From Candidatus Latescibacterota bacterium (GTDB taxonomy: Bacteria > Latescibacterota > UBA2968 > UBA8231), in the NCBI GenBank assembly GCA_965197905.1, contig CBDAOB010000001.1, positions 1-64,000 on the forward strand: a stretch of DNA of 64,000 nucleotides, read 5' to 3'. The notes under the pieces are model-generated. The model did no database searches. It was not told the DNA's origin and saw only the letters and a list, made by a program, of their open reading frames with translations. Made by a program: the position numbers and the translations under genes. Position 1 is the first letter of the stretch; each line of letters begins with the position of its first letter. Below, one piece after another: positions 22,930 through 63,959 of this stretch.

Positions 22930-22951
22930 AACGCAGGGATAGCGCTCCGAA

Positions 22952-24213
22952 ATGACCAGTGCACCTGATCCGATTCCCGAAAATACGCTGAAGCTGGGAC
23001 AGACCAGCGCCCAGCTGGAAGAGGTGTTCGCCGATTCCTACATCCTCTTCAACGAAACCACGCGCCGTTACATGGAGGCGTACAAACAACTCGAGGAGCA
23101 GTTTGAATTCCTCAATGTCAAGCTCGAAGAAACAAACCTGGAGCTGCGCAAGAGCCTCGAAGAGAAAGACCGGGTCAGCAATTATCTCAACAACATTCTC
23201 GAAAGTTTGAGCGGCGGTGTGCTCGTGGTCGACCTTGATGGAAAGATCACCCTCTTCAACGAAGCCGCCGAGACCATTAGCGGCTGTTCCCAGGCGGCAA
23301 ACCGTACGCCGAAGTGATCGGCGTCGACGCCGGCCGCGAACGCACGGTACTGCACACCCTGGACTGCGGCAGCGCGCTCATCAACCAGGAGAAAACCTTA
23401 AAACGACCGGACGGACGGCAGATTCCTCTCGGTTTCAGCACCTCGGTGGTACGCGAGAACGACGGCAGGATGTTGGGGGCTGTTGAGGTGTTCAACGATC
23501 TCACCGAGGTCAAACGGCTCGAGGCCGAGCTACAACGAGTCCACGTACTGGCCGCCCTCGGTGAAATGGCAGCCACGGTGGCACACGAGATTCGCAATCC
23601 GCTGGGCGGCATCGCCGGCTTCGCGGCCATGCTGCAACGCGACCTGGAAGCCGCCGACCCGCGCTATCGCCTGGTGCAGAAGATCACCGAGGGCGTCGCC
23701 CGGCTCAATCGCATCGTTTCCAGCCTGCTCACCTACACTCGACCGCTGCAGTTGAATTCGCACCCGGTCCGCCTTGCGGAACTGGTCGAGGAGACCATCG
23801 CTTTTTTCGAGATCGACCTGGAGCGGGCGCACAAGAACATAAAGGTCGAGCGCCACTTCCCCGAGGCGGAGCAGGTCTGCAATATGGACCCGGAACAGTT
23901 TCAGCAGGTCATACTGAATCTGCTGCAGAACGCAACACAGGCGATGCCGGAGGGCGGCACCATCGACGCCACGGTAGATACCGCAAATACTCCTTCGGGA
24001 CCCACCGCCAAGTTGTGCATCAGCGACACCGGCGTGGGCATGAGCTCGGAGGTCCGGGAGCGATTGTTCACCCCCTTTTTCACCACCAAGGAAGACGGCA
24101 CCGGATTGGGTCTCGTGACTTCCAAGAAAATCGTCGAGGCTCACGGTGGTTTCATCGCCGTCGAGAGCCAACCAGATCAAGGCACTTCTTTCACCATTTC
24201 TCTACCCCAATAA
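22952..24213 (+). pseudogene. PAS sensor histidine kinase, FleS/FlrB-like; frameshift or small deletion at ~23294
   Basis: LFNE..Y.QLE..EKDR..L.NILESL.GGV.VVD PAS start, LGEMAATVAHEIRNPL H-box, NLLQNA, DTGVG and FFTTK..GTGLGL. Frame break at CSQ|GKPYAEV. Confidence 0.85.
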
Positions 24214-24234
24214 TCCAGCGAGGCAGAAACCACC

Positions 24235-25287
24235 ATGGCTAACAAGCGCATTCTCGTAGTAGACGACGATTCTTACGTCCGCGAGGCGACCGAAGAGATC
24301 CTCACCCGCCGTGGCGTACGATGTGGATACGGCTCCCGAAGCGGCCACCGCCCTGCGCAAGCTGGATGAGGGTGAATACGATCTGATTCTTTCAGATATC
24401 CGCATGCCTGGCATGAGCGGCCTGGAACTCTTGGAGGGTGCCCGGCTCAAGGCTCCGGATGTGCTGATCATCATGATGACGGCCTTCGGCACCATCGAGG
24501 ATGCGGTAGACGCCATGAAGAAAGGCGCTTTCGACTACATCCAGAAGGGATCCGATCCGGCAGAAGTGGAGATGGTGGTGGAACGCGCACTCAAGTTTCA
24601 GACCACGCAGCGGGAAAACCGTCAATTGCGCTCCGAGCTCAAGGAGCGCTACAGCTTCGGCAATATGATCGGCAAGGCGCACAATATGTAGAGCAGGTGT
24701 TCGATTTGATCGACACGGTGTCCGACAGCCGCGCCACGGTGCTGGTAACGGGCGAAAGCGGTACCGGCAAGGAGCTGGTAGCTCGAGCGTTGCATTACAA
24801 CAGTCCGCGAAGCGCTGCGCCCTTCATTCGACTCAACTGTGCGGCGCTGCCCAAGGAGCTTATGGAGAGCGAGCTCTTCGGCCATGAGAAAGGAGCTTTT
24901 ACCGGGGCCATCAAACAGACCCGGGGTCGCTTCGAGATGGCCGACGGCGGCACCCTGCTGCTGGACGAGATCAGCGAGATCGATCCCGCCCTGCAGGCCA
25001 AGCTCCTGCGTGTGCTGCAGGAACGCGAGTTCGAACGGGTCGGCAGCGCCCAGACCATAAAGGTGGACGTCCGCATCGTCGCCACCACCAACCGCGATCT
25101 CACCAGACAGATCGATGAAGGTCGCTTCCGCGAGGATCTCTACTACCGGCTGAACGTGATCGAGATCGCCTTGCCATCTCTGCGCGAGCGGCGGGACGAC
25201 GTGCCCGCGCTGGTGCGCTCGTTCATCGAGCGCTACAACAGCGAAAACAACAAGAACATCGAAAGCATCTCCGACGAGGCCATGTGA
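24235..25287 (+). pseudogene. Sigma54-dependent response regulator (NtrC/FleR family); two frameshifts and missing C-terminus
   Basis: REC domain (ILVVDDD, DIRMP), [14 protein letters not shown] and LLLDEI. Frameshifts at ~24316 and ~24689. Ends at ISDEAM without WPGNVREL or the HTH. Confidence 0.88.
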
Positions 25288-52260: not shown

Positions 52261-54524
<2,264 letters not shown>

Positions 54525-54525
54525 G

Positions 54526-56046
54526 TTATACGGGACGGAATCTGGCTTTGAATTCCTCGACCACCGCCTTAAGCTTCTCCTGGGTGTCATCGCTCAGATT
54601 CTTGCTGTCGCGAATCTCGCCCAGCAGCTCTGAATGCTGCTGACGAAGGTGGTCGAGTAGGTTGGCTTCGAACTGCCGCACTTGGTCGGTGGGGAGGTCG
54701 TCGATAAGATTTCCTGCGAAAAGCGCTGCGACCTGCTCCTCCTCGGGCATGGGCACGAACTGATTCTGTTTCAGGATCTCGGTCAGTTTTTCTCCCCGGT
54801 TCAGCAGATTGCGCGTGGAGGCGTCCAGATCGGATGCCCCGAACTGGGCAAACGCTTTGACCTCGTTGTACTGGGAGAGGTCGACGCGCAAGGTTTTCGC
54901 AACCGCTTTCATCGCTTTCGTCTGTGCGGCGCTGCCGACGCGAGACACGGAGGCACCCACGTCCATCGCCGGCCTGACTCCCGCATAGAATAGCTCGGGC
55001 TTGAGCAGGATTTGACCGTCGGTGATCGACCAGACATTGGTCGGTATGTAGGTCGACACGTCCCCTTCGAGGATCTCGATGATGGGCAGCGCGGTCAGGG
55101 TGCCCCCACCCTTCTCATCGCTGAACTTGGCCGCCCGTTCCAGCAGGCGCGAGTGCAGGTAGAATACATCCCCAGGATACGCCTCGCGGCCGGGTGGACG
55201 GCGCAACACCAGAGACATCTCGCGATACGCCCACGAGTGTTTGGAAAGATCGTCGTAGACGATCAACGCATTCTCGCCCTTATCGCGAAAGTATTCACCC
55301 ATGGAACAACCGGAATATGGAGCAAGATACTGCAGAGGAGCCGGATCGCTTGCGGGAGCCGACACCACGGTGGTGTACTCCATGGCGCCGTTATTCTCCA
55401 GATCGCTGACGATCTTGGCAACGCTGGAGCTCTTCTGACCGATGGCCACGTAGACGCATTTGACGCCGGATTTCTTCTGATTGATGATGGCATCGATGCC
55501 GATGGCCGTCTTGCCCGTCTGCCGATCGCCGATGATCAGCTCCCGCTGTCCCATACCTATGGGAACGGTAGCATCGATCACCTTGAGCCCGGTCTGCAGC
55601 GGCTGCTCCACCTTCTGCCGATCGATCACCCCGGGCGCCATCCGTTCGACGGGTAGCGTGCGCGAAGTCGAGATGTCACCCTTTCCGTCGATAGGCTGCC
55701 CCAGGGGATTGACCACCCTGCCCAGCAACTCCTCGCCGACGGGCACCTCGACGATGCGCCCGGTGCGTTTGACCTGATCGCCCTCGACGATATGCGTGTC
55801 TTCTCCGAAGAGCACGCAACCGACATTATCTTCCTCGAGGTTGAGGGCCATGCCCATGATCCCATGGGGAAATTCCACCATCTCGGTTGCACGCACGTTC
55901 CCGAGCCCGTGAACCCTGGCGATTCCGTCACCAACGTAGAGTACCGACCCGGTTTCGGAGACATCGACCTCCTTTTCGAAACCGAGCAACTGCTGCTTCA
56001 GGATCGCGGAGATCTCTCCGGGTTGAACCATTGTCTCTGACGCCAT
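54526..56046 (-). CDS. atpA: ATP synthase alpha
   Basis: [14 protein letters not shown] and [25 protein letters not shown]. Confidence 0.98.
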
Positions 56047-56086
56047 CTCTCTTCCTTCCGGATTCTTCTTTTCTATAACCTTACTA

Positions 56087-56626
56087 TCAGGTACCGACCA
56101 AGTGCCGGTGCAGGCGCTCCAGATAGGTTGCAACGCTGCCGTCGTACACCGTGTCACCGATGCTAGCCACGGCGCCGCCGCGAATGGCCGGATCGACTTC
56201 GACGTGCAACCTTACCTCCTTGCCCGAAATCTCCGCCAGGCGCCGGCGCAGCCGTCCTATCTGATCTTCTCCCAGGGGAACGGCCGAACGAACCTCTGCG
56301 GAAATGACGCCGGATCTTTCGTCGCACAAGGCTTCGAAAAGCTCAAGCATTTCGGGAAGCAGGTCGGTGCGCCGCCGCTCGGTGAGGAGCAGGAGGAAGT
56401 TCAGGGTCAAACTCTGGACTCGTCCCCCGAACAAACGCTCGAGAGCACCACGCTGCAGCAATGAACTCATATAGCGATTGCCTACAAACGAGGCCAGCTC
56501 CTCCGATTGCTCGAGAGTCTGTCGTAGGCCCCGGACGTCGCTTCGAACCGCGTCGAGCACGCTACTTTCCTCGGCGGCTTCCAGCAGGGTGGCTGCATAG
56601 CGCCGAACTACCTCGGGTGCTTTCAT
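56087..56626 (-). CDS. atpH: ATP synthase delta
   Basis: RRYA..L, VRSAVPL and VDP.I.GG...IGD.VYDGS. Confidence 0.93.
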
Positions 56627-56653
56627 CTTCCTCTCGGAATCGCTTCGGGCCGG

Positions 56654-56814
56654 ATGCGCTGCTCAATAACTGGCCTTGCAAAATTGCGGCGCAGAGGCGC
56701 CCGGCCCGCAAGACGCGCGATCGAGCCATATTGGTGGATATGGCGAGTGAGCGCAACGCAGCGGGCTGGGATGCATCGGCGGCGAAATGCAAGGACGGTT
56801 GTTGAACAGTGCAT
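56654..56814. mobile_element. 161-bp MITE-like element between atpF and atpH
   Basis: 27-bp imperfect terminal inverted repeats (22/27 identical; 56654-56680 and 56788-56814), internal hairpins, non-coding. Confidence 0.7.
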
Positions 56815-57305
56815 TGGTTGTCGCTGGGAATGCCCGCAATGAGGTCCTCGACAAGTTTGCGGTTGCGCTCGTCGTCCAGGTTCGCTTCGATCAGAGCACC
56901 GGCCGCTTTCACGGCCAGATCCGCCGTCTCCTTGCGCAACTCGGCTATAGCCGCCTGCTTTTCGCTCTCGATGGCGCGCCGCGCTTGCTCGGTCGTCCGC
57001 TGAGCCTCCTGGCGAGCGTTCGAGACGATTTCCTGCTCGACCTTCTCCGCCGCTTCCCGGGCCAGCCGGACGATCTCTCGCGCCTCGGCGTCGGCGCCCT
57101 GAAGTTTCTGCTGATGCTCTTCGACGATGGACTGAGCTTCTTTTCGAGACCGCTCCGCCGTCTCCAGCGCGTCGCTTATCCGTTTTTCCCGCTCGTCGAG
57201 CGCGCCAAGAAGCGGACGCCATACGGTTGCGCGCAGAACCACCAGCACCACAAAGAAGGTGACTAGGGTCCATATTATGGTTCCTACATGGGGATCTAAT
57301 AGCAT
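56815..57305 (-). CDS. atpF: ATP synthase subunit b; native stop absent, so the ORF reads through the MITE to 56562
   Basis: N-terminal TM, W.PL..LDERE..I, coiled coil; similarity ends near LIAGIPSDN. Confidence 0.92.
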
Positions 57306-57325
57306 CTTCGGGTCTCGTCAGCTAG

Positions 57326-57565
<240 letters not shown>

Positions 57566-57589
57566 CTAGCCGTGCACATGTGATTCCCG

Positions 57590-58423
57590 CTAATGCTCCG
57601 GATGAGCAGCCATGTTGATAAACAAGGCAGATAGCAGGGTGAAGATAAACGCCTGAATAAAACCGATAAAGATGTCCAGCAAATAGAGAGCTACCGCGAA
57701 GGTCACCGAAAAGGGCGCCAGCCAGAGCGCCTTCATCATGATGACGAGGCCCAGAAAGACCAGGATCGCCACGTGTCCGGCGATCATGTTAGCGAAAAGT
57801 CGTATACAGAGGGCAAACGGTTTGGCGAGCAAGGAGATGAGCTCGATGGGAATCATGATAATCAACAGCGGCGCCGGCAACCCCGGGGGGATGAGGCTGC
57901 GAAGATATCCGAACAGACCGTTATTGGCGATGCCCGCTCCCTGGGTTATGAAAAAGGTCATCAGGGCCAGGGCGGCGGTCACACTTACGTTCCCGGTTGC
58001 CGTCGCGGTGTACGGGATCAAACCCAGCAGGTTGCAAAACAGAATAAAGAAGAAGACGGTCAACAGGTACGGTAGATACACCTTGCCGTGGTCGCCCATG
58101 ATCGGAACGACGACCTCGTCGCGGATAAAAACCACCAAAGCTTCGAAGAGATTGGCCAGACCACTTGGCACGAGGGCGGAACGACGAAAAGCGAGGGTGA
58201 GAGACACGATCAGGAGTGCGCTCGCCACCCACATCATCACGATATGTCGAGAGATTGACAGATCTACGGCGACCCCGAACACGTCAATCGGGGCAAACTG
58301 TGGAAGGGAAATCTTGCCGTCGAAGAAGTGGTTTGCGTTCCAGAATGGCACCTCGAGGTAGTCATGGTCGAGAATGTGACCGACGATATCTACCTCTTCG
58401 GACGCGTGCTCCTCGCTTGCCAT
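57590..58423 (-). CDS. atpB: ATP synthase subunit a
   Basis: NLLGLIP, TATGN and IRLFANMIAGH (essential Arg present). Confidence 0.96.
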   Translation of the reverse strand: MASEEHASEEVDIVGHILDHDYLEVPFWNANHFFDGKISLPQFAPIDVFGVAVDLSISRHIVMMWVASALLIVSLTLAFRRSALVPSGLANLFEALVVFIRDEVVVPIMGDHGKVYLPYLLTVFFFILFCNLLGLIPYTATATGNVSVTAALALMTFFITQGAGIANNGLFGYLRSLIPPGLPAPLLIIMIPIELISLLAKPFALCIRLFANMIAGHVAILVFLGLVIMMKALWLAPFSVTFAVALYLLDIFIGFIQAFIFTLLSALFINMAAHPEH

Positions 58424-58501
58424 CAAACCTTCAAAAATCGGAGAAATTTAAGGGAAAAACTGGAACAGACGGCTCCTACTTCTGGTCGAGCCGGGGCATA
58501 A

Positions 58502-58852: not shown

Positions 58853-59109
58853 TCGTCTTCCCCATTCCGCGCACTCTGGTCTACCGTTGCCTTGTAGATG
58901 CTGTAGAACCCCGACGCGATACCCAGCAGTATCCCGAGTATCAGAAAAAGGGGTGTGGTGGATAGCCATTCATCGATCCACAATCCGCCGAAGAGTCCGA
59001 TGGCGATAGCGGCCGCGAACTGGAATCCGACGTTGATGAAAGGTCCGGCTTTGGCGTAGGATCGCAGCAGCTTGCGGCTGCCTGATTCGGAATCGTCGTT
59101 CAAGGTCAC
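58849..59109 (-). CDS. AtpZ/AtpI family protein
   Basis: G..F...I.IG..GG.WID.WL.T.P.F.I.G.LLG...GF; GTG overlaps the nuoN TGA. Confidence 0.85.
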   Translation of the reverse strand: MTLNDDSESGSRKLLRSYAKAGPFINVGFQFAAAIAIGLFGGLWIDEWLSTTPLFLILGILLGIASGFYSIYKATVDQSARNGEDE

Positions 59110-60551
59110 ATCACCGAAACAACCGACGAACGGACAATACCGATCAATATGTCTGGGAATAGTCCCAGCGCAAGGGTGCTCGTCGCCGTCAGCAGCAGAA
59201 CAGCCATCGGTTCCGGCGAAATCCGGACTTCCAATGGCGCCGGCGCGGCCGGACGCATGTAGACGTCGACCACGAGGCGGCAGGAGACATAGGCAGAAAA
59301 CAAGGTTGTCAGCGCCGCGACCGCCACCAGCACGAATTGGCCGGCGTCTGCCGCTGCTCCCATCAGCAGAAAGCGACTTGCAAACCCGGCCGACGGAGGC
59401 AGACCCGCCAGATTGAGCAATAGGAGGGCGAAAATCAGCGCGATTGCGGGATGCCGATGAGCTAACCCCGCGTAGTCTCCAATCTCGGTATCGTCTTCGG
59501 CGGGACGACGGCACATCACCAGCAGAGAGTAACATCCCGCCGCCGCCAGAGCGCTCACGCAGATTTGAAACACTGCGCCGACCACTCCATCGGGATTGGC
59601 CGCCGCTATCCCCATCAATGCGAATCCACCTTGAGCGAGGAAGGCATACGCTAGCAAGCGTTTGAGGTTGCGCTGGTTCATAGCGAGAAGATATCCACCT
59701 ATCATGGTTGCGATGGCGAGGACGACGATCGCCGGAACCCATCGATCCGACAGCTGCTCGAAGCCGTAGAGAAAGAATCGCATGAGCACCGCCAGCGCGG
59801 CCGCGCCCGGAGCTACCGAAATGAAGCCTGCTACCGGCGCCGAGACACCGTGGCGCACATCGGGCGCCCACATGTGAAACGGCAGCACCGCGGTTTTGAC
59901 GCAGAGGCCTACGAGCAGGAATGCCAGGCCGCTGAGGAGCAGTGGATCGCCGGTGCCGCTATTCAATAGATGCACGGTCAATTCCCTTAGCCCGGTGGAA
60001 CCTACGGCGCCGTAGACCAGGCTGCCGCCGTAGAGGATTATGCCACTTCCCAACGCTCCCATAACGTAGAACTTCGCCGCGGATTCCACTGCGTGTTCCG
60101 GCCTCGCGGCGTATACGCTCAATACGCACAGGCTCAACGTCGTCAGCTCCAACCCCACATAAACTAGCACGAGGTCGGTCGCAGCCACCGATACCATTGT
60201 GCCGAGACCGGCGATCAAAAGCAAAGGGTAAAATTCGCTGCAGACGTCGCGCGGCAGATACTGCAACGCCAGCAGCACCGTCAGCACGGTGATACCCAGC
60301 AAGAGTACGTGGAAGAATGATGAGAACGCGTCGCGTGCATACATCCCCCCAAACGCCTCGGCGTTGACTTCCTGGTTCCATTCCATGAGCTCCAGGCAGA
60401 GGGCGATCAGGCCGACACAGAGACAGATATATCCGATTCCGCGGCTGGATCGGCGCGGCCAAAAGACCGCATCGAGCAGGAAAATCAAAATGGCGGCAGC
60501 GCCGACGACGATCTCTGGATAGAGGGCGGACCAATCTGCGGCCAAGCTCAT
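59106..60551 (-). CDS. nuoN: NADH-quinone oxidoreductase subunit N-like (divergent)
   Basis: GLEL, K..VLPFHMWAPDV, NLKRLLAY and LAGLPP.AGF; third gene in L-M-N order. Confidence 0.88.
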   Translation of the reverse strand: MSLAADWSALYPEIVVGAAAILIFLLDAVFWPRRSSRGIGYICLCVGLIALCLELMEWNQEVNAEAFGGMYARDAFSSFFHVLLLGITVLTVLLALQYLPRDVCSEFYPLLLIAGLGTMVSVAATDLVLVYVGLELTTLSLCVLSVYAARPEHAVESAAKFYVMGALGSGIILYGGSLVYGAVGSTGLRELTVHLLNSGTGDPLLLSGLAFLLVGLCVKTAVLPFHMWAPDVRHGVSAPVAGFISVAPGAAALAVLMRFFLYGFEQLSDRWVPAIVVLAIATMIGGYLLAMNQRNLKRLLAYAFLAQGGFALMGIAAANPDGVVGAVFQICVSALAAAGCYSLLVMCRRPAEDDTEIGDYAGLAHRHPAIALIFALLLLNLAGLPPSAGFASRFLLMGAAADAGQFVLVAVAALTTLFSAYVSCRLVVDVYMRPAAPAPLEVRISPEPMAVLLLTATSTLALGLFPDILIGIVRSSVVSVM

Positions 60552-62056
60552 GGCGTTCCCCCTTGCGGAGCTTTCACGGTGGTTTTGTGCCCCGGATCCG
60601 CGTGAGCCAGCACCTGTTCGATCGAGTGCGCCATCTTGTCGTGGATAGCCTGGGGACTCAACCCGATCCATAAGATCCCCAGGAACAAGGGAACCAGAAG
60701 GATTACTTCGCGGGGGCGCAGATCGTCACCGGGTGCAGGCGAAGTCCCGGCGCCGAACCCCAGACGCTGATAACGGCGCAGCAAGCTGGCAGCTAGAAAC
60801 AGCGATCCGATAACGGCGCCAATCGCGTAACCCAGATTTCGTTCCAGAGCGCCCAGGATCACGGAGATCTGGCTTACGAAAACGTTCAACCCCGGGATCC
60901 CGATCGCGGCCAGCATGATGAGGAGAAGGGCCGCACAGGTTTTCGGGTGGCTCCTGGCCAGCCCCCGCTCATCCTCCAGTCCCCTCCCTCGCAGAATTCC
61001 GGCCACTGCGAACAATCCCGCCATTACCAGACCCCGGTTGATCATGTGAGCCACCCCACCACCGACGCCGGCCACCGTCAGGGTTGAAAACCCCAGAACG
61101 ATCAAACCCACCTGGCTCACGGTCACATACGCCAGCAGACGCGGTAACTCCGCTTCGACGAGGGCGAGCAGACTGCCGTAGAGAATCGCACTCACCGCCA
61201 GCAGCAAGACATATTCGTCCACCCGGTGCAGGGCCTCAGTGAACAAGGGAACGCAAAACCTTACGAATCCGTAGATCCCCAGATTCAGCCAGATGCCCGT
61301 GACGACGATCGAGCCGGCGGAGCTGGCGTGTCTATGCAGATCCGCCAGCCAACTGTGGAACGGGAACAAGGCGGCCTTGAAGGCGAAACCAAAAAACATG
61401 GCTGCCAGGAGCCAGAGCTCGGCATCGGTTGACAGGGAGAGCTGGCTCAGGCGCGAAAACTCGAAACTCCGGGGCCCTTCCAGATCCGCTTGTAGCACGC
61501 CCAGATACACGATGGCACCGAGAATGAGGGCGCTTCCGGCCACATTCGTCAAAGCGAACTTCACCGCGGCATGGATTCGGCCCTCGCCACCCCACACGCC
61601 GACGAGGAGAAAAATTGGCAGCAAGGTGATTTCGAGGCTGATGTAGAACATGGTCAAGTCCAATGCCACGAACGCGGCAGCAGCTCCACCCGTTGCTGCC
61701 AGCAAGGTGGTCGAGAACTCCTTTACTCGGACCCGTACTTCGTTCCAGCTCGCCAGCTGGGCGATAGGCAGAAGCAGCGCCGCCAGCAAGACGAGAAGCA
61801 GGCTGATGCCATCCAGACCCACATGGTACTCGATCCCCAATTCCTGGATCCAGGTGTGGCGGTACTCCATTTGGGGTCCGTAGATGGCGTCGTCGAATAA
61901 TGCGTAGCAGACCGCGGCGATTGCGGTCTCCACCAGTCCGATTCCCAGGGACACGCCGCGGATCAAATCTTCCTTACCGCGGGGAAGCGCCATAACGAGA
62001 ACGGCGCCGGCCAGAGGCACCAGGATCAGCAGCGTAGGCAGATGATTCACATTCAT
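60548..62056 (-). CDS. nuoM: NADH-quinone oxidoreductase subunit M-like (divergent)
   Basis: WI..LGI.Y.VGLDGISL, VWGG..R..AA.KF and FAFK..LFPFHSWL. Confidence 0.88.
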   Translation of the reverse strand: MNVNHLPTLLILVPLAGAVLVMALPRGKEDLIRGVSLGIGLVETAIAAVCYALFDDAIYGPQMEYRHTWIQELGIEYHVGLDGISLLLVLLAALLLPIAQLASWNEVRVRVKEFSTTLLAATGGAAAAFVALDLTMFYISLEITLLPIFLLVGVWGGEGRIHAAVKFALTNVAGSALILGAIVYLGVLQADLEGPRSFEFSRLSQLSLSTDAELWLLAAMFFGFAFKAALFPFHSWLADLHRHASSAGSIVVTGIWLNLGIYGFVRFCVPLFTEALHRVDEYVLLLAVSAILYGSLLALVEAELPRLLAYVTVSQVGLIVLGFSTLTVAGVGGGVAHMINRGLVMAGLFAVAGILRGRGLEDERGLARSHPKTCAALLLIMLAAIGIPGLNVFVSQISVILGALERNLGYAIGAVIGSLFLAASLLRRYQRLGFGAGTSPAPGDDLRPREVILLVPLFLGILWIGLSPQAIHDKMAHSIEQVLAHADPGHKTTVKAPQGGTP

Positions 62057-62057
62057 A

Positions 62058-63959
62058 TCAAAATGCAACGAAGTAGAAGAGCGTGGCTACCAATCCCGCA
62101 GCGGCGACCGTGGCATACAATCCGACCCTACCGGTTTGGGTCGCGCAGAGAACCCAACCGATACCGCGGACAAACATCGCGCTGCCCCACACGCAACCGA
62201 GATCCAGGACAACCGTATCGACGGCGTCTCGCAAGAAACCCGCAATCCAGCGGAGAGGGCGAAGGACTACCTGCTGACATAGCCATTCGACGTAGAAGTG
62301 ATTTCGCGCCCATAGCTGCCAGAAACTCTCCTTCTCGGCCGGGGCTGTCTTGAACCCGAACAGGGTCCAGGCGATCCCTAGGCCGACCACAGCCGCCATG
62401 GCAGGCACGAACCAGTAGATCGTTTGCGGAAAATCGGTGGCGTAAGGCACGCTGACGGATAGCTCGGGCAGGATCATGCGGTAGAGTATCTGCGGCTCAA
62501 TCAGAAACGGAATCAACCCGGCTCCAAGGGTCGTAACCGACAGGACGATCAACGCCGCGGCGGCAGCGTGTGGCAGCGGTTTTGGCCGCTCGTCTTGAAC
62601 GGTTGCGGCGGGGCGGGCGTAGATGAGCAACACCACGCGAAAGCCGTAGAGGGCGGTCAGCAGCAAAGCAACGCAACCGACGACCCAGAGATGCAACATG
62701 TCCACCGAATAGATCGCCGCCATGGCCGCTCCCGTACTCCAGAAGGCGGCAGACGGGGGCAGTCCGACAAGACCTGTTATTCCGATGACGAAAGCCCAGA
62801 ACGGGACGAGGAGACGACCTGAACGCTGTGGCAGATTCCACACATCCAGATTGTGATTCGAGCGTGCCGAAAGCACTGAGGTACCGAGGAAAAGCAGGGC
62901 CTTTAGGCAAGCGTGAAGACAGACGTAAAGAATGGCAACCGCATGGGCACCCATGCCGACGACGGCAAGGACCAGACCCAGCTGGCTGGAGCTCGAGAAG
63001 GCCAGCACCTTCTTCAGATCGCGCTCTCCCAAGGCGACGAGGCCGGAGAAAATGGCCGTTGTCAGCCCGACTCCTATGAGAATCCATCGCAGGGACGGTG
63101 ACTGCTCGAGCAACACGCCTGCGCGCACCAGCGTATATACGGCGGCGATGCTCATGAAGCCGAAATGCACCAACGCGTTCGTCGAGGCCGGCGCCCTGGT
63201 CGCACTCGAAAGCCAGACGTGAAACGGAAACTGGGCGCTACGGCAAAATACGGAGACGAGCAGTAGGATCCCGGCCATCTGGGTCCAGCTGGAAGAGCCA
63301 GCTGTTTCCAACCCCTTGTATTCCAGCGTTCCCACTGCCGATGCCAGCATCAGGATGCAGATGAGAAGGGCCAGATCTCCCGCTCTGTCCACCACCCAGA
63401 AACCAAACGCGCCTCCTTCGGCGGAGGCACTGTGGGACTCGCTCAGAATGTCACCGGATTGAATCTCCGGTTCGGTTCGCTCGCGACCCCAGGTTGTCAG
63501 GAAATAACCGCAGATACCCAGCAACACCCATCCCCCATACAGCAAACCTAGATTGTTGGCGATCAGCAGCAGGGTCACCGCCGTCGAGGCCAGGCAGACC
63601 AGCGCGAAGAATCGGGCGCCGCTGCCATCGCGCTTGCGGGTGCCCACGGAAAACAGCTGGATAGCAAAAGCCAGGGTGGTCGTGGCAACCAGCAGTATCG
63701 CCGTGAGCCCGTCTACCAATACGCCGCAGGAAAAGGAAACATCACCGAGGCGCAGCCAAACAAACAGGATCTCATCGACCGTTTGCCCCTGGGACACTTG
63801 TGCAAAAACCAGCAAGGCGGCGCTCCACGACAAAAACAAAGCCGCGGTGGCAACCCACGCCGGCGCCTGCCCGCGGCCAAAGAGGATGCAGAGCGCGGCT
63901 CCTGAAGCCGGCGCCAACAGGACCAGGAGGGCGCCAATGAGGGTATCGGCAATCACCAT
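62058..63959 (-). CDS. nuoL: NADH-quinone oxidoreductase subunit L-like (divergent)
   Basis: RFF..L, RAGD, SAQFPFHVWL, DLKKVLAFS..SQLG, HA..KALLF and C-terminal QTG.V..YA. Confidence 0.88.
   Translation of the reverse strand: MVIADTLIGALLVLLAPASGAALCILFGRGQAPAWVATAALFLSWSAALLVFAQVSQGQTVDEILFVWLRLGDVSFSCGVLVDGLTAILLVATTTLAFAIQLFSVGTRKRDGSGARFFALVCLASTAVTLLLIANNLGLLYGGWVLLGICGYFLTTWGRERTEPEIQSGDILSESHSASAEGGAFGFWVVDRAGDLALLICILMLASAVGTLEYKGLETAGSSSWTQMAGILLLVSVFCRSAQFPFHVWLSSATRAPASTNALVHFGFMSIAAVYTLVRAGVLLEQSPSLRWILIGVGLTTAIFSGLVALGERDLKKVLAFSSSSQLGLVLAVVGMGAHAVAILYVCLHACLKALLFLGTSVLSARSNHNLDVWNLPQRSGRLLVPFWAFVIGITGLVGLPPSAAFWSTGAAMAAIYSVDMLHLWVVGCVALLLTALYGFRVVLLIYARPAATVQDERPKPLPHAAAAALIVLSVTTLGAGLIPFLIEPQILYRMILPELSVSVPYATDFPQTIYWFVPAMAAVVGLGIAWTLFGFKTAPAEKESFWQLWARNHFYVEWLCQQVVLRPLRWIAGFLRDAVDTVVLDLGCVWGSAMFVRGIGWVLCATQTGRVGLYATVAAAGLVATLFYFVAF

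Follow-up and report, generated by a model that had tools for sequence, protein, structure and literature searches.

The window analysed here, a stretch of 64,000 nucleotides that forms the first 64 kb of contig C1 (CBDAOB010000001.1) in a 6.69 Mb genome of five contigs from a Candidatus Latescibacterota bacterium (GCA_965197905.1, designated G000 below), carries near its far end the genes nuoL, nuoM and nuoN, which are the distal end of a real, strongly derived operon for respiratory complex I. Many of the Lys, Glu and His residues that form the proton axis of the canonical enzyme are replaced in the three encoded membrane subunits; further replacements extend to other subunits of the operon, recur in related species, and are found in genes that evolve under purifying selection. 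The reading that we favour, and to which we give an even chance, is that the operon encodes an old, selected and non-pumping derivative of complex I, which would act as a non-canonical electron-transfer or structural complex beside Na+-NQR, an NADH:quinone oxidoreductase that translocates Na+. The data exclude an artefact as the source of these observations, and at the level of the genus they also exclude neutral decay.

The three genes of the window, each an open reading frame (ORF) supported by domain, family-model and structural matches, are the following:

62058..63959, minus strand: nuoL, 633 amino acids, intact and strongly diverged (ORF, PF00361 and PF00662, NCBIfam NuoL models, alignments to PDB chains)
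60548..62068, minus strand: nuoM, 506 amino acids, intact (ORF, PF00361, TIGR01972, alignments to PDB chains)
59106..60554, minus strand (ORF extending to 60671): nuoN, 482 amino acids counted from Met40 of a 521-residue ORF (PF00361, TIGR01770, alignments to PDB chains)

As the preliminary description had reported, all three frames are open; the genes overlap, by 11 nucleotides between nuoL and nuoM and by 7 nucleotides between nuoM and nuoN. The start of nuoN is most likely Met40, and phmmer alignments of its product to PDB chains begin at query residue 44-49. The domain PF00361 is found in NuoL, NuoM and NuoN with E-values between 1e-36 and 2e-55, and the top NCBIfam matches of the three proteins are the NuoL, NuoM and NuoN models, followed by secondary matches of 100-150 bits to Mrp and Hyf models. 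The scores reflect unequal divergence: NuoL falls far below the cut-offs of its models (322.8 bits against 556, and 310.8 bits against 407.5), NuoN falls just short of TIGR01770 (322 bits against 332.6), and NuoM passes TIGR01972 (393.6 bits against 263.8). All three proteins align over their full length to chains of solved complex I structures (E-values of 1e-42 to 1e-70), and for NuoL these include the chains from Escherichia coli, Mycobacterium smegmatis and Thermus thermophilus.

The substitutions were checked by phmmer alignment to PDB chains and by MAFFT alignment with NuoL, NuoM and NuoN of E. coli K-12 (NC_000913). Twelve replacements had been read by eye in the preliminary description, and all twelve were reproduced in these formal alignments, which place them as follows:

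63525..63527, minus strand: NuoL Val145 for the Glu of transmembrane helix 5 (TM5; E. coli E144; E144V), a position that is soft in other lineages
63240..63242, minus strand: NuoL Arg240 for the TM7 Lys (E. coli K229; K229R)
62925..62927, minus strand: NuoL Tyr345 for E. coli H334 (H334Y), a soft position
62730..62735, minus strand: NuoL Thr409-Gly410 for the TM12 Lys-Asp pair (E. coli K399, D400; K399T, D400G)
61283..61285, minus strand: NuoM Asn262 for the central TM8 Lys (E. coli K265; K265N)
61112..61114, minus strand: NuoM Gln319 for E. coli H322 (H322Q), a soft position
61034..61036, minus strand: NuoM Arg345 for E. coli H348 (H348R)
60869..60871, minus strand: NuoM Gln400 for the TM12 Glu (E. 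coli E407; E407Q)
59805..59807, minus strand: NuoN Gly250 for the TM8 Lys (E. coli K247; K247G)
59631..59633, minus strand: NuoN Gln308 for E. coli H305 (H305Q), a soft position
59373..59375, minus strand: NuoN Arg394 for the TM12 Lys (E. coli K395; K395R)

Read as strings of axis residues, NuoL has VDRHYHKTG where the canonical enzyme has EDKHHHKKD, NuoM has EKNQRQ where it has EKKHHE, and NuoN has EKGQR where it has EKKHK, so that none of the three subunits displays the canonical axis. The preliminary description had named Lys or Glu at compensating neighbours as evidence against its inference; when the alignments were scanned for charged residues newly conserved in the genus, the TM8 and TM12 columns held no such Lys or Glu. 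Near the axis only two residues of this kind turned up, a His in NuoM at E. coli position 344 and a Glu in NuoK at position 59, and the scan also showed Arg residues in loops of NuoL.

Not all twelve positions carry the same diagnostic weight. A metagenome scan keyed on a TM5 motif without its Glu returned 80 loci, 79 of them with a NuoL, all therefore chosen by that motif; at 77 of the 79 (L095-L173) the residue at NuoL E144 is Gly, Ala or Val, and every other covered axis residue of NuoL, NuoM, NuoN and NuoK is canonical. These loci are otherwise canonical operons of 14 subunits. The replacement H322Q in NuoM is frequent among them and H305Q in NuoN occurs in four, and NuoL H334 is Tyr, Phe or Met in several representatives. 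Four of the twelve positions (NuoL E144, NuoL H334, NuoM H322 and NuoN H305) are thus soft in otherwise normal enzymes, and NuoL E144 and NuoM H322 are dispensable in some normal lineages. The weight of the argument consequently rests on NuoL K229, K399 and D400, on NuoM K265, H348 and E407, on NuoN K247 and K395, and on the two NuoK glutamates described below. Published work gives the role of several axis residues: one report assigns NuoM K265, H322 and E407, together with NuoL K399/D400, to a proposed proton path (PMC9271201), and another describes E. coli NuoN K247A and K395A mutants as retaining 6-17% of wild-type activity, that is, as nearly inactive (PMC13073174).

The replacements are also part of a much broader divergence. 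Across 114 canonical homologues, 108 columns of NuoL reach a conservation of 90% or more; of these, 60 are altered in at least one of seven genus-level sequences and 48 are kept in all seven; the corresponding numbers of conserved columns kept are 47 of 81 in NuoM, 58 of 111 in NuoN and 16 of 27 in NuoK, in comparison with canonical sets that are not random samples. The alteration is wholesale, and the earlier notion of substitutions 'targeted' to the pumping axis is not borne out. Nor is the alteration limited to the membrane arm, as had first been described, since the NuoF pocket, the NuoCD His, the E-channel residues of NuoH and NuoA, and NuoK are altered as well. The central suggestion of the preliminary description, a non-pumping or repurposed complex, is still the best reading of the data.

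The remainder of the operon lies upstream, in the order nuoA-CD-E-F-G-H-J-K-L-M-N, with nuoC and nuoD fused, with nuoB absent between nuoA and nuoC and with nuoI absent between nuoH and nuoJ. In NuoK, both of the glutamates found in the canonical subunit are replaced in all three genomes of the genus (E36G and E72Q), and the Glu-Glu pair is present in all 72 other rows that contain a NuoK (71 metagenome loci and G024, a genome of the same class that belongs to a different family; the count leaves aside L094, L117 and the three loci of the genus). In NuoA the equivalents of D79 and E81 in a conserved motif have become Pro and Val, and in NuoH most acidic residues of the conserved loops and motifs are replaced. 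The second His of the NuoCD loop HPxxHG is Thr in G000 and in one sister species (G002) and Pro in the other (G001), and the Tyr is retained; we take this His to be the quinone ligand and the Tyr to be its partner, presumably H38 and Y87 in the numbering of T. thermophilus Nqo4. In NuoF, four motifs that we assume to be flavin and NADH contacts (the glycine-rich loop GRGGAGF, NADE, CGEET and KPPFP) are all rewritten, both in the genus and in the metagenome contig L094, and the same motifs keep their canonical form in G024, as they do in a NuoEF-like paralogue encoded by this same genome.

The iron-sulfur (Fe-S) chain has been kept throughout. The Cys and His ligands of clusters N1a, N1b, N3, N4, N5 and N7 are all present in NuoE, NuoF and NuoG, as are the ligands of cluster N2 in NuoB and both 4Fe-4S motifs in NuoI, the sole exception being NuoG of G002 (L021), in which the first Cys of the N4 motif is Arg; the residue is Cys in G000 and G001.

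The altered state is not peculiar to one assembly. In both other species of the genus (G002 and G001) the operon recurs, every one of its frames is open and the substitutions are identical, so that the relatives share the changes, as the preliminary description had proposed to check; the identities of their NuoL, NuoM and NuoN to those of G000 are 88-93% (G002) and 61-71% (G001), the range across the proteins from nuoA to nuoN is 47-95%, and a further locus, L031, encodes a NuoM that is 88% identical. Beyond the genus, G024 has the same gene order, likewise without nuoB and nuoI, and is canonical at every position checked; the class's other families supplied 27 NuoL loci, and all 27 are canonical. 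Among 5.8 billion clustered proteins only five close clusters were found (98, 89, 89, 83 and 63% identity), the next being at 29%, and in an exhaustive HMMER search of 1.84 billion representatives the nearest NuoL proteins from outside the genus were P0124 (39%) and P0125 and P0126 (35%). These three and P0157 all lack NuoL E144, K399 and D400, and 123 of the 152 rows aligned from this search have the canonical pattern.

P0126 corresponds to the metagenome contig L094, where the operon again lacks nuoB and nuoI, the NuoF motifs are rewritten in the same way, and NuoL, NuoM, NuoN and NuoK are degenerate. The changed conserved columns common to the genus and L094 amount to 23 of the 32 genus-changed columns in NuoF and 58 of 73 in NuoL. 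Two genomes of the same family, G014 and G006, also have a degenerate NuoL. In a quick tree, from which the G014 and G006 rows (NuoL ORFs shorter than 560 amino acids) were absent, the degenerate NuoL sequences group together with a value of 92 in the Shimodaira-Hasegawa-like approximate likelihood ratio test (SH-aLRT), with 2.71 changes per column on the stem of the genus; their grouping is uncertain because the branches are long, and a long-branch artefact is possible. A further member of the family, G008 (L024), was seen to carry a different complex I-like cluster, with nuoB, C/D, H, I and K and four PF00361 genes, without nuoE, F and G, and with canonical residues in M and N.

The strength of selection was estimated as the ratio of nonsynonymous to synonymous substitution rates (dN/dS) by the Nei-Gojobori method (NG86) between G000 and G002, at dS values of 0.28-0.41. 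The ratio is 0.20 for nuoL (bootstrap 0.145-0.279), 0.155 for nuoM, 0.108 for nuoN and 0.077 for nuoK, values far below the ratio near 1 that the preliminary description had set against its own inference; nuoF (0.118) and nuoG (0.131) lie in the same range, nuoE gives 0.29, and constraint is weakest in the subunits that surround the quinone site (nuoCD at 0.25, nuoA at 0.32 and nuoH at up to 0.35). The stand-alone genes nuoB and nuoI, encoded elsewhere in the genome, yield 0.119 and 0.20, and nqrF, taken for comparison, 0.031. Canonical nuoL, nuoM and nuoN in the sister family (G020 against G022, dS about 0.33) have ratios of 0.22, 0.24 and 0.14. The degenerate genes are therefore as constrained as canonical ones. 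About 13 kb of frames have remained open in G002, G001 and L094, although dS between G002 and G001 exceeds 1.5. The idea that these frames are held open merely to avoid transcriptional polarity on the downstream atp operon was rejected: it predicts a dN/dS of about 1, and nuoK, nuoL, nuoM and nuoN give 0.08-0.20.

The surroundings of the operon, and the distribution of its missing members, are summarized by the following features:

52261-58426 of the window, minus strand: F1Fo ATP synthase operon (a, c, b, delta, alpha, gamma, beta), directly downstream of nuoN
57326-57547 of the window: ATP synthase c subunit
C5:1975683-1976243: stand-alone nuoB, single copy, cluster cysteines intact
C5:1428335-1428760: stand-alone nuoI, single copy, cluster cysteines intact

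The genes nqrF, nqrE, nqrD and nqrC of a Na+-NQR lie directly upstream of nuoA, so that nqr, nuo and atp make up one co-oriented block of three bioenergetic operons. Counting the unlinked nuoB and nuoI, the core set NuoA-N is complete; the upstream genes that the preliminary description had asked about are thus present, with the qualification that nuoD, nuoF and nuoH have frame-breaking indels in G000 and are intact in G002 and G001. A second, canonical nuo operon, also raised there, was ruled out, as the genome encodes one NuoD, one NuoH and one NuoB, and its other trio of PF00361 proteins belongs to an Mrp-like cluster on C5. The stand-alone nuoB adjoins a gene with an Mrp/ApbC-like P-loop motif (C5:1975683-1977028); the Mrp/ApbC family carries Fe-S clusters. 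The NuoEF-like paralogue is a fused NuoE/NuoF-like flavoprotein with canonical flavin and NADH motifs, encoded beside a NuoG-like 2Fe-2S/4Fe-4S protein and a molybdopterin oxidoreductase (C5:1218801-1223407, minus strand), an enzyme that looks like a formate dehydrogenase of the NAD-linked type.

The degenerate operon is most simply regarded as a vertical descendant of an operon of the G024 type, because the two have the same gene order without nuoB and nuoI and their products remain recognizably similar (49% identity for NuoF and 54% for the NuoD part). Under the reading that we favour, an ancestor shared with the L094 lineage would have lost redox-coupled proton pumping, and probably the ordinary NADH and quinone chemistry at the same time, through loss of the Lys/Glu/His relay of NuoL, NuoM and NuoN, the NuoK Glu pair, the acidic residues of NuoA and NuoH, the NuoCD His and most of the flavin and NADH motifs of NuoF; the overall folds, all of the subunits and every Fe-S cysteine have been kept. 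This burst of change would have been followed by maintenance for a role in which subunits, folds and Fe-S chain are all required. The complex may still be made and assembled, unable to couple redox chemistry to proton translocation. Its substrate pocket in NuoF would be re-shaped, and its role would most likely be structural or one of non-electrogenic electron transfer, with NADH oxidation and ion pumping left to the Na+-NQR encoded directly upstream. It is possible, as a wider and more tentative proposal, that an old clade of such 'pseudo-complex I' enzymes exists among Latescibacterota-like marine and host-associated bacteria, with the architecture of 14 subunits and the Fe-S wire, a re-shaped NuoF pocket conserved within the clade, a membrane arm devoid of its protonatable residues, a different electron donor and no ion pumping, and that it represents a new functional class of the complex I superfamily.

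The main rival, which we consider somewhat unlikely, is that the operon is a relic in slow decay, which became dispensable once the Na+-NQR had taken over NADH oxidation, was stripped of its catalytic residues as selection relaxed, and is now disappearing from one lineage after another. What purifying selection is left would then only reflect the cost of misfolded or mis-assembled membrane proteins produced from an operon that is still transcribed between nqr and atp. A number of observations weigh on this side and against a selected derivative. Relative to G002, the copy in G000 has a 1-nucleotide deletion in nuoD, which splits its Pfam match at position 83/84, a 1-nucleotide deletion in nuoF, which cuts 36 residues off NuoF, and a 2-nucleotide insertion in a G run of nuoH. 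A near-identical strain (run X3) has a 294-nucleotide in-frame skip, with 5 nucleotides of microhomology, and an extra G in nuoG (L007 10089-10429), so that the nuo copy looks as if it is in current decay in this species. A NuoL match at an E-value of 1e-40 or lower is found in only 11 of 75 genomes of the family, in which the complex appears to be dispensable and often lost. The replacement residues at lost positions vary by lineage (K399 to Thr, Tyr or Arg; D400 to Gly, Val, Ala or Asn), as expected if the positions are simply unconstrained. The long genus stem and the weaker constraint on the quinone-site subunits, given above, point in the same direction. Only the ratio between G000 and G002 is reliable as a measure of selection, dS to G001 being saturated; and the roles ascribed here to residues of NuoF, NuoCD, NuoH, NuoA and NuoK are putative ones, taken over from the complex I literature. 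Two RNA libraries, finally, yielded only three exact contigs, of 162-210 nucleotides at depths of 2.6-3.6, from nuoG and nuoE, which could be explained by carry-over of DNA; most of the operon is uncovered in them, and no conclusion was drawn from that gap.

Against slow decay stand the equality of dN/dS between the degenerate genes and canonical copies in the sister family, and the frames of G002, G001 and L094, which stay open over roughly 13 kb even though dS is saturated. The Fe-S ligands are all kept, and the stand-alone nuoB and nuoI are maintained at a dN/dS of 0.12-0.20 without any other partner for their products. The new forms of the NuoF motifs are in turn conserved, being shared by the genus and L094. 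Nor are the lesions confined to nuo: in comparison with G002, roughly a dozen more frame changes are scattered across other conserved ORFs in about 105 kb, set against three in about 13 kb of nuo, so that pseudogenisation directed at nuo in this genome is unsupported. These frame changes elsewhere reflect either widespread recent pseudogenisation or indel errors of the assembly. Similarly, the nuo indels represent either recent breakage of this strain's copy or an imperfect consensus; the nuoD and nuoF deletions are present in contigs of two runs from two studies, and a minor variant in run X1 (depth 3 of 11.4) restores both frames and is the only one that does so.

A second alternative, which we judge improbable, is that the complex is still an energy-converting pump that uses other residues or another coupling ion. 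Its pathway would run through the residues that have been retained (NuoL D82, D178, H254, H338 and K342, and the TM5 Glu and TM7 Lys of both NuoM, namely E144 with K234, and NuoN, namely E133 with K217), in particular the Glu and Lys of NuoM and NuoN and the NuoL residues H254, H338, K342 and D178, through the Lys-to-Arg replacements, and through the new NuoM His and NuoK Glu. The E. coli mutant NuoM E407K continues to pump at reduced stoichiometry (PMC9271201). It is also consistent with such a pump that NuoL E144, NuoM H322 and NuoN H305 are replaceable in otherwise normal enzymes, and that the adjacent Na+-NQR and the Mrp-like cluster elsewhere suggest a sodium economy. Against it, the TM8 Lys is lost in both NuoM and NuoN, the TM12 residue is lost or is Arg in NuoL, NuoM and NuoN, and no new acidic residues occupy the TM8 or TM12 columns. 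The NuoK Glu pair, the acids of the E-channel and the quinone-site His are lost together with them. The ATP synthase c subunit, for its part, lacks what we take to be the Na+-binding pattern of Gln, Ser/Thr and Tyr. A single K247A or K395A change is sufficient to nearly abolish activity in E. coli (PMC13073174).

The last alternative, an artefact arising from misalignment, from sequencing error or from a member of the Mrp, Hyf or Mbh families mistaken for complex I, could draw on the sub-threshold NCBIfam scores of NuoL and NuoN and on the many frame changes of the assembly relative to its sister species, and is effectively refuted by the concurrence of three independent alignment methods, by the recurrence of the same residues across the genus, in its three genomes as well as in another five protein clusters that are 63-98% identical (which upholds the preliminary view that sequencing error is an unlikely cause), by the arrangement of nuoA, CD, E, F, G, H, J and K in the order of a canonical relative, and by a NuoCD without Cys at the positions of the hydrogenase metal site in a genome whose Mrp-like cluster is separate.

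Several other features of this genome were recorded in and around the same region. Just outside the window lies an insert within the operon:

C1:64879-65630 (L007 7879-8630), minus strand: group II intron of about 752 nucleotides, without an ORF, inserted in nuoH in sense orientation

The insert begins with GTGCG and matches the intron models RF02003 (106.8 bits) and RF00029 (39.2 bits, at a gathering score of 40); its removal restores the NuoH frame as in G002, at least 13 near-identical copies are present on contigs C2 to C5, and the near-identical strain of run X3 lacks the nuoH intron. Among the frame changes noted above, three fall within the window in a PAS histidine kinase and its neighbour, a sigma-54 response regulator (about 22943-25284), which are 94-98% identical to those of G002, and one separates the b and delta genes of the ATP synthase, which make up a single ORF in G002.

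The mechanism by which complex I couples electron transfer to proton translocation is still debated, and has been studied mainly with single point mutants. In the lineage described here, essentially the whole set of residues addressed by those studies has been replaced in nature, and the subunits, folds and Fe-S ligands have long been maintained by purifying selection of normal strength. No account of a degenerate complex I of this kind, from this phylum or elsewhere, was found in open-access papers and preprints searched in full text. If the complex is made, it would show that the architecture of complex I can be used without its usual NADH oxidation or proton pumping, and would provide structural and biophysical studies with a stable scaffold, 'dead' by nature, to compare against; if the wider proposal of a pseudo-complex I holds, the clade would amount to an experiment of nature in which assembly and electron transfer are set apart from coupling. 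For metabolic reconstructions the practical consequence is that 'complex I present', when scored from the presence of genes, would be wrong for this lineage.

Compared with the canonical NDH-1 enzymes of E. coli, T. thermophilus and M. smegmatis (for example 3rko, 4he8 and 8e9g), the operon specifies the same set of subunits, with nuoC and nuoD fused as in E. coli, all of the Fe-S ligands, and a NuoL with a C-terminal region that can be aligned with the E. coli chain as far as its end; it differs in the replaced relay, NuoK glutamates, NuoA and NuoH acids, NuoCD His and NuoF motifs, and in its unlinked nuoB and nuoI. The E. coli mutants NuoN K247A, NuoN K395A and NuoM E407K are changed at the same positions and assemble normally (PMC13073174, PMC9271201), but each carries one change, whereas about ten co-occur here naturally and are conserved. 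The Mrp antiporters and the modules of group 4 hydrogenases (MrpA/D, HyfB/D/F, Mbh) have the PF00361 fold in common with the window proteins. Unlike the Mrp systems, however, the operon contains nuoCD, E, F, G and H and has no mrpB, C, E, F or G, and unlike the group 4 [NiFe] hydrogenases (Hyf, Mbh, Ech), its NuoCD has, by alignment, no Cys at either the N-terminal or the C-terminal motif of the NiFe site.

The closest comparisons are with other members of the degenerate group and with the canonical relative. The NuoL proteins P0124, P0125, P0126 (L094), P0157/P0286 and those of G014 and G006 likewise lack E144, K399 and D400 but are only 35-39% identical in NuoL, and one cluster member is named 'hypothetical protein [Gemmatimonadetes bacterium]'. 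The operon of L094 has the layout of the genus, with K234R, K265S and E407L in NuoM, K395R in NuoN and E36G in NuoK; unlike the genus, it keeps NuoN K247 and NuoK E72, and has Arg for the quinone-site His and Pro for the Tyr, which is therefore lost as well. The gene order of G024 (locus L023) is identical to that of the window genome, but its NuoL, which is 44% identical to that of E. coli and 31% identical to that of the window, has the axis EDKHHHKKD, its NuoM has EKKHHE, its NuoN EKKHK and its NuoK both glutamates, and the quinone-site His and the NuoF motifs are all kept.

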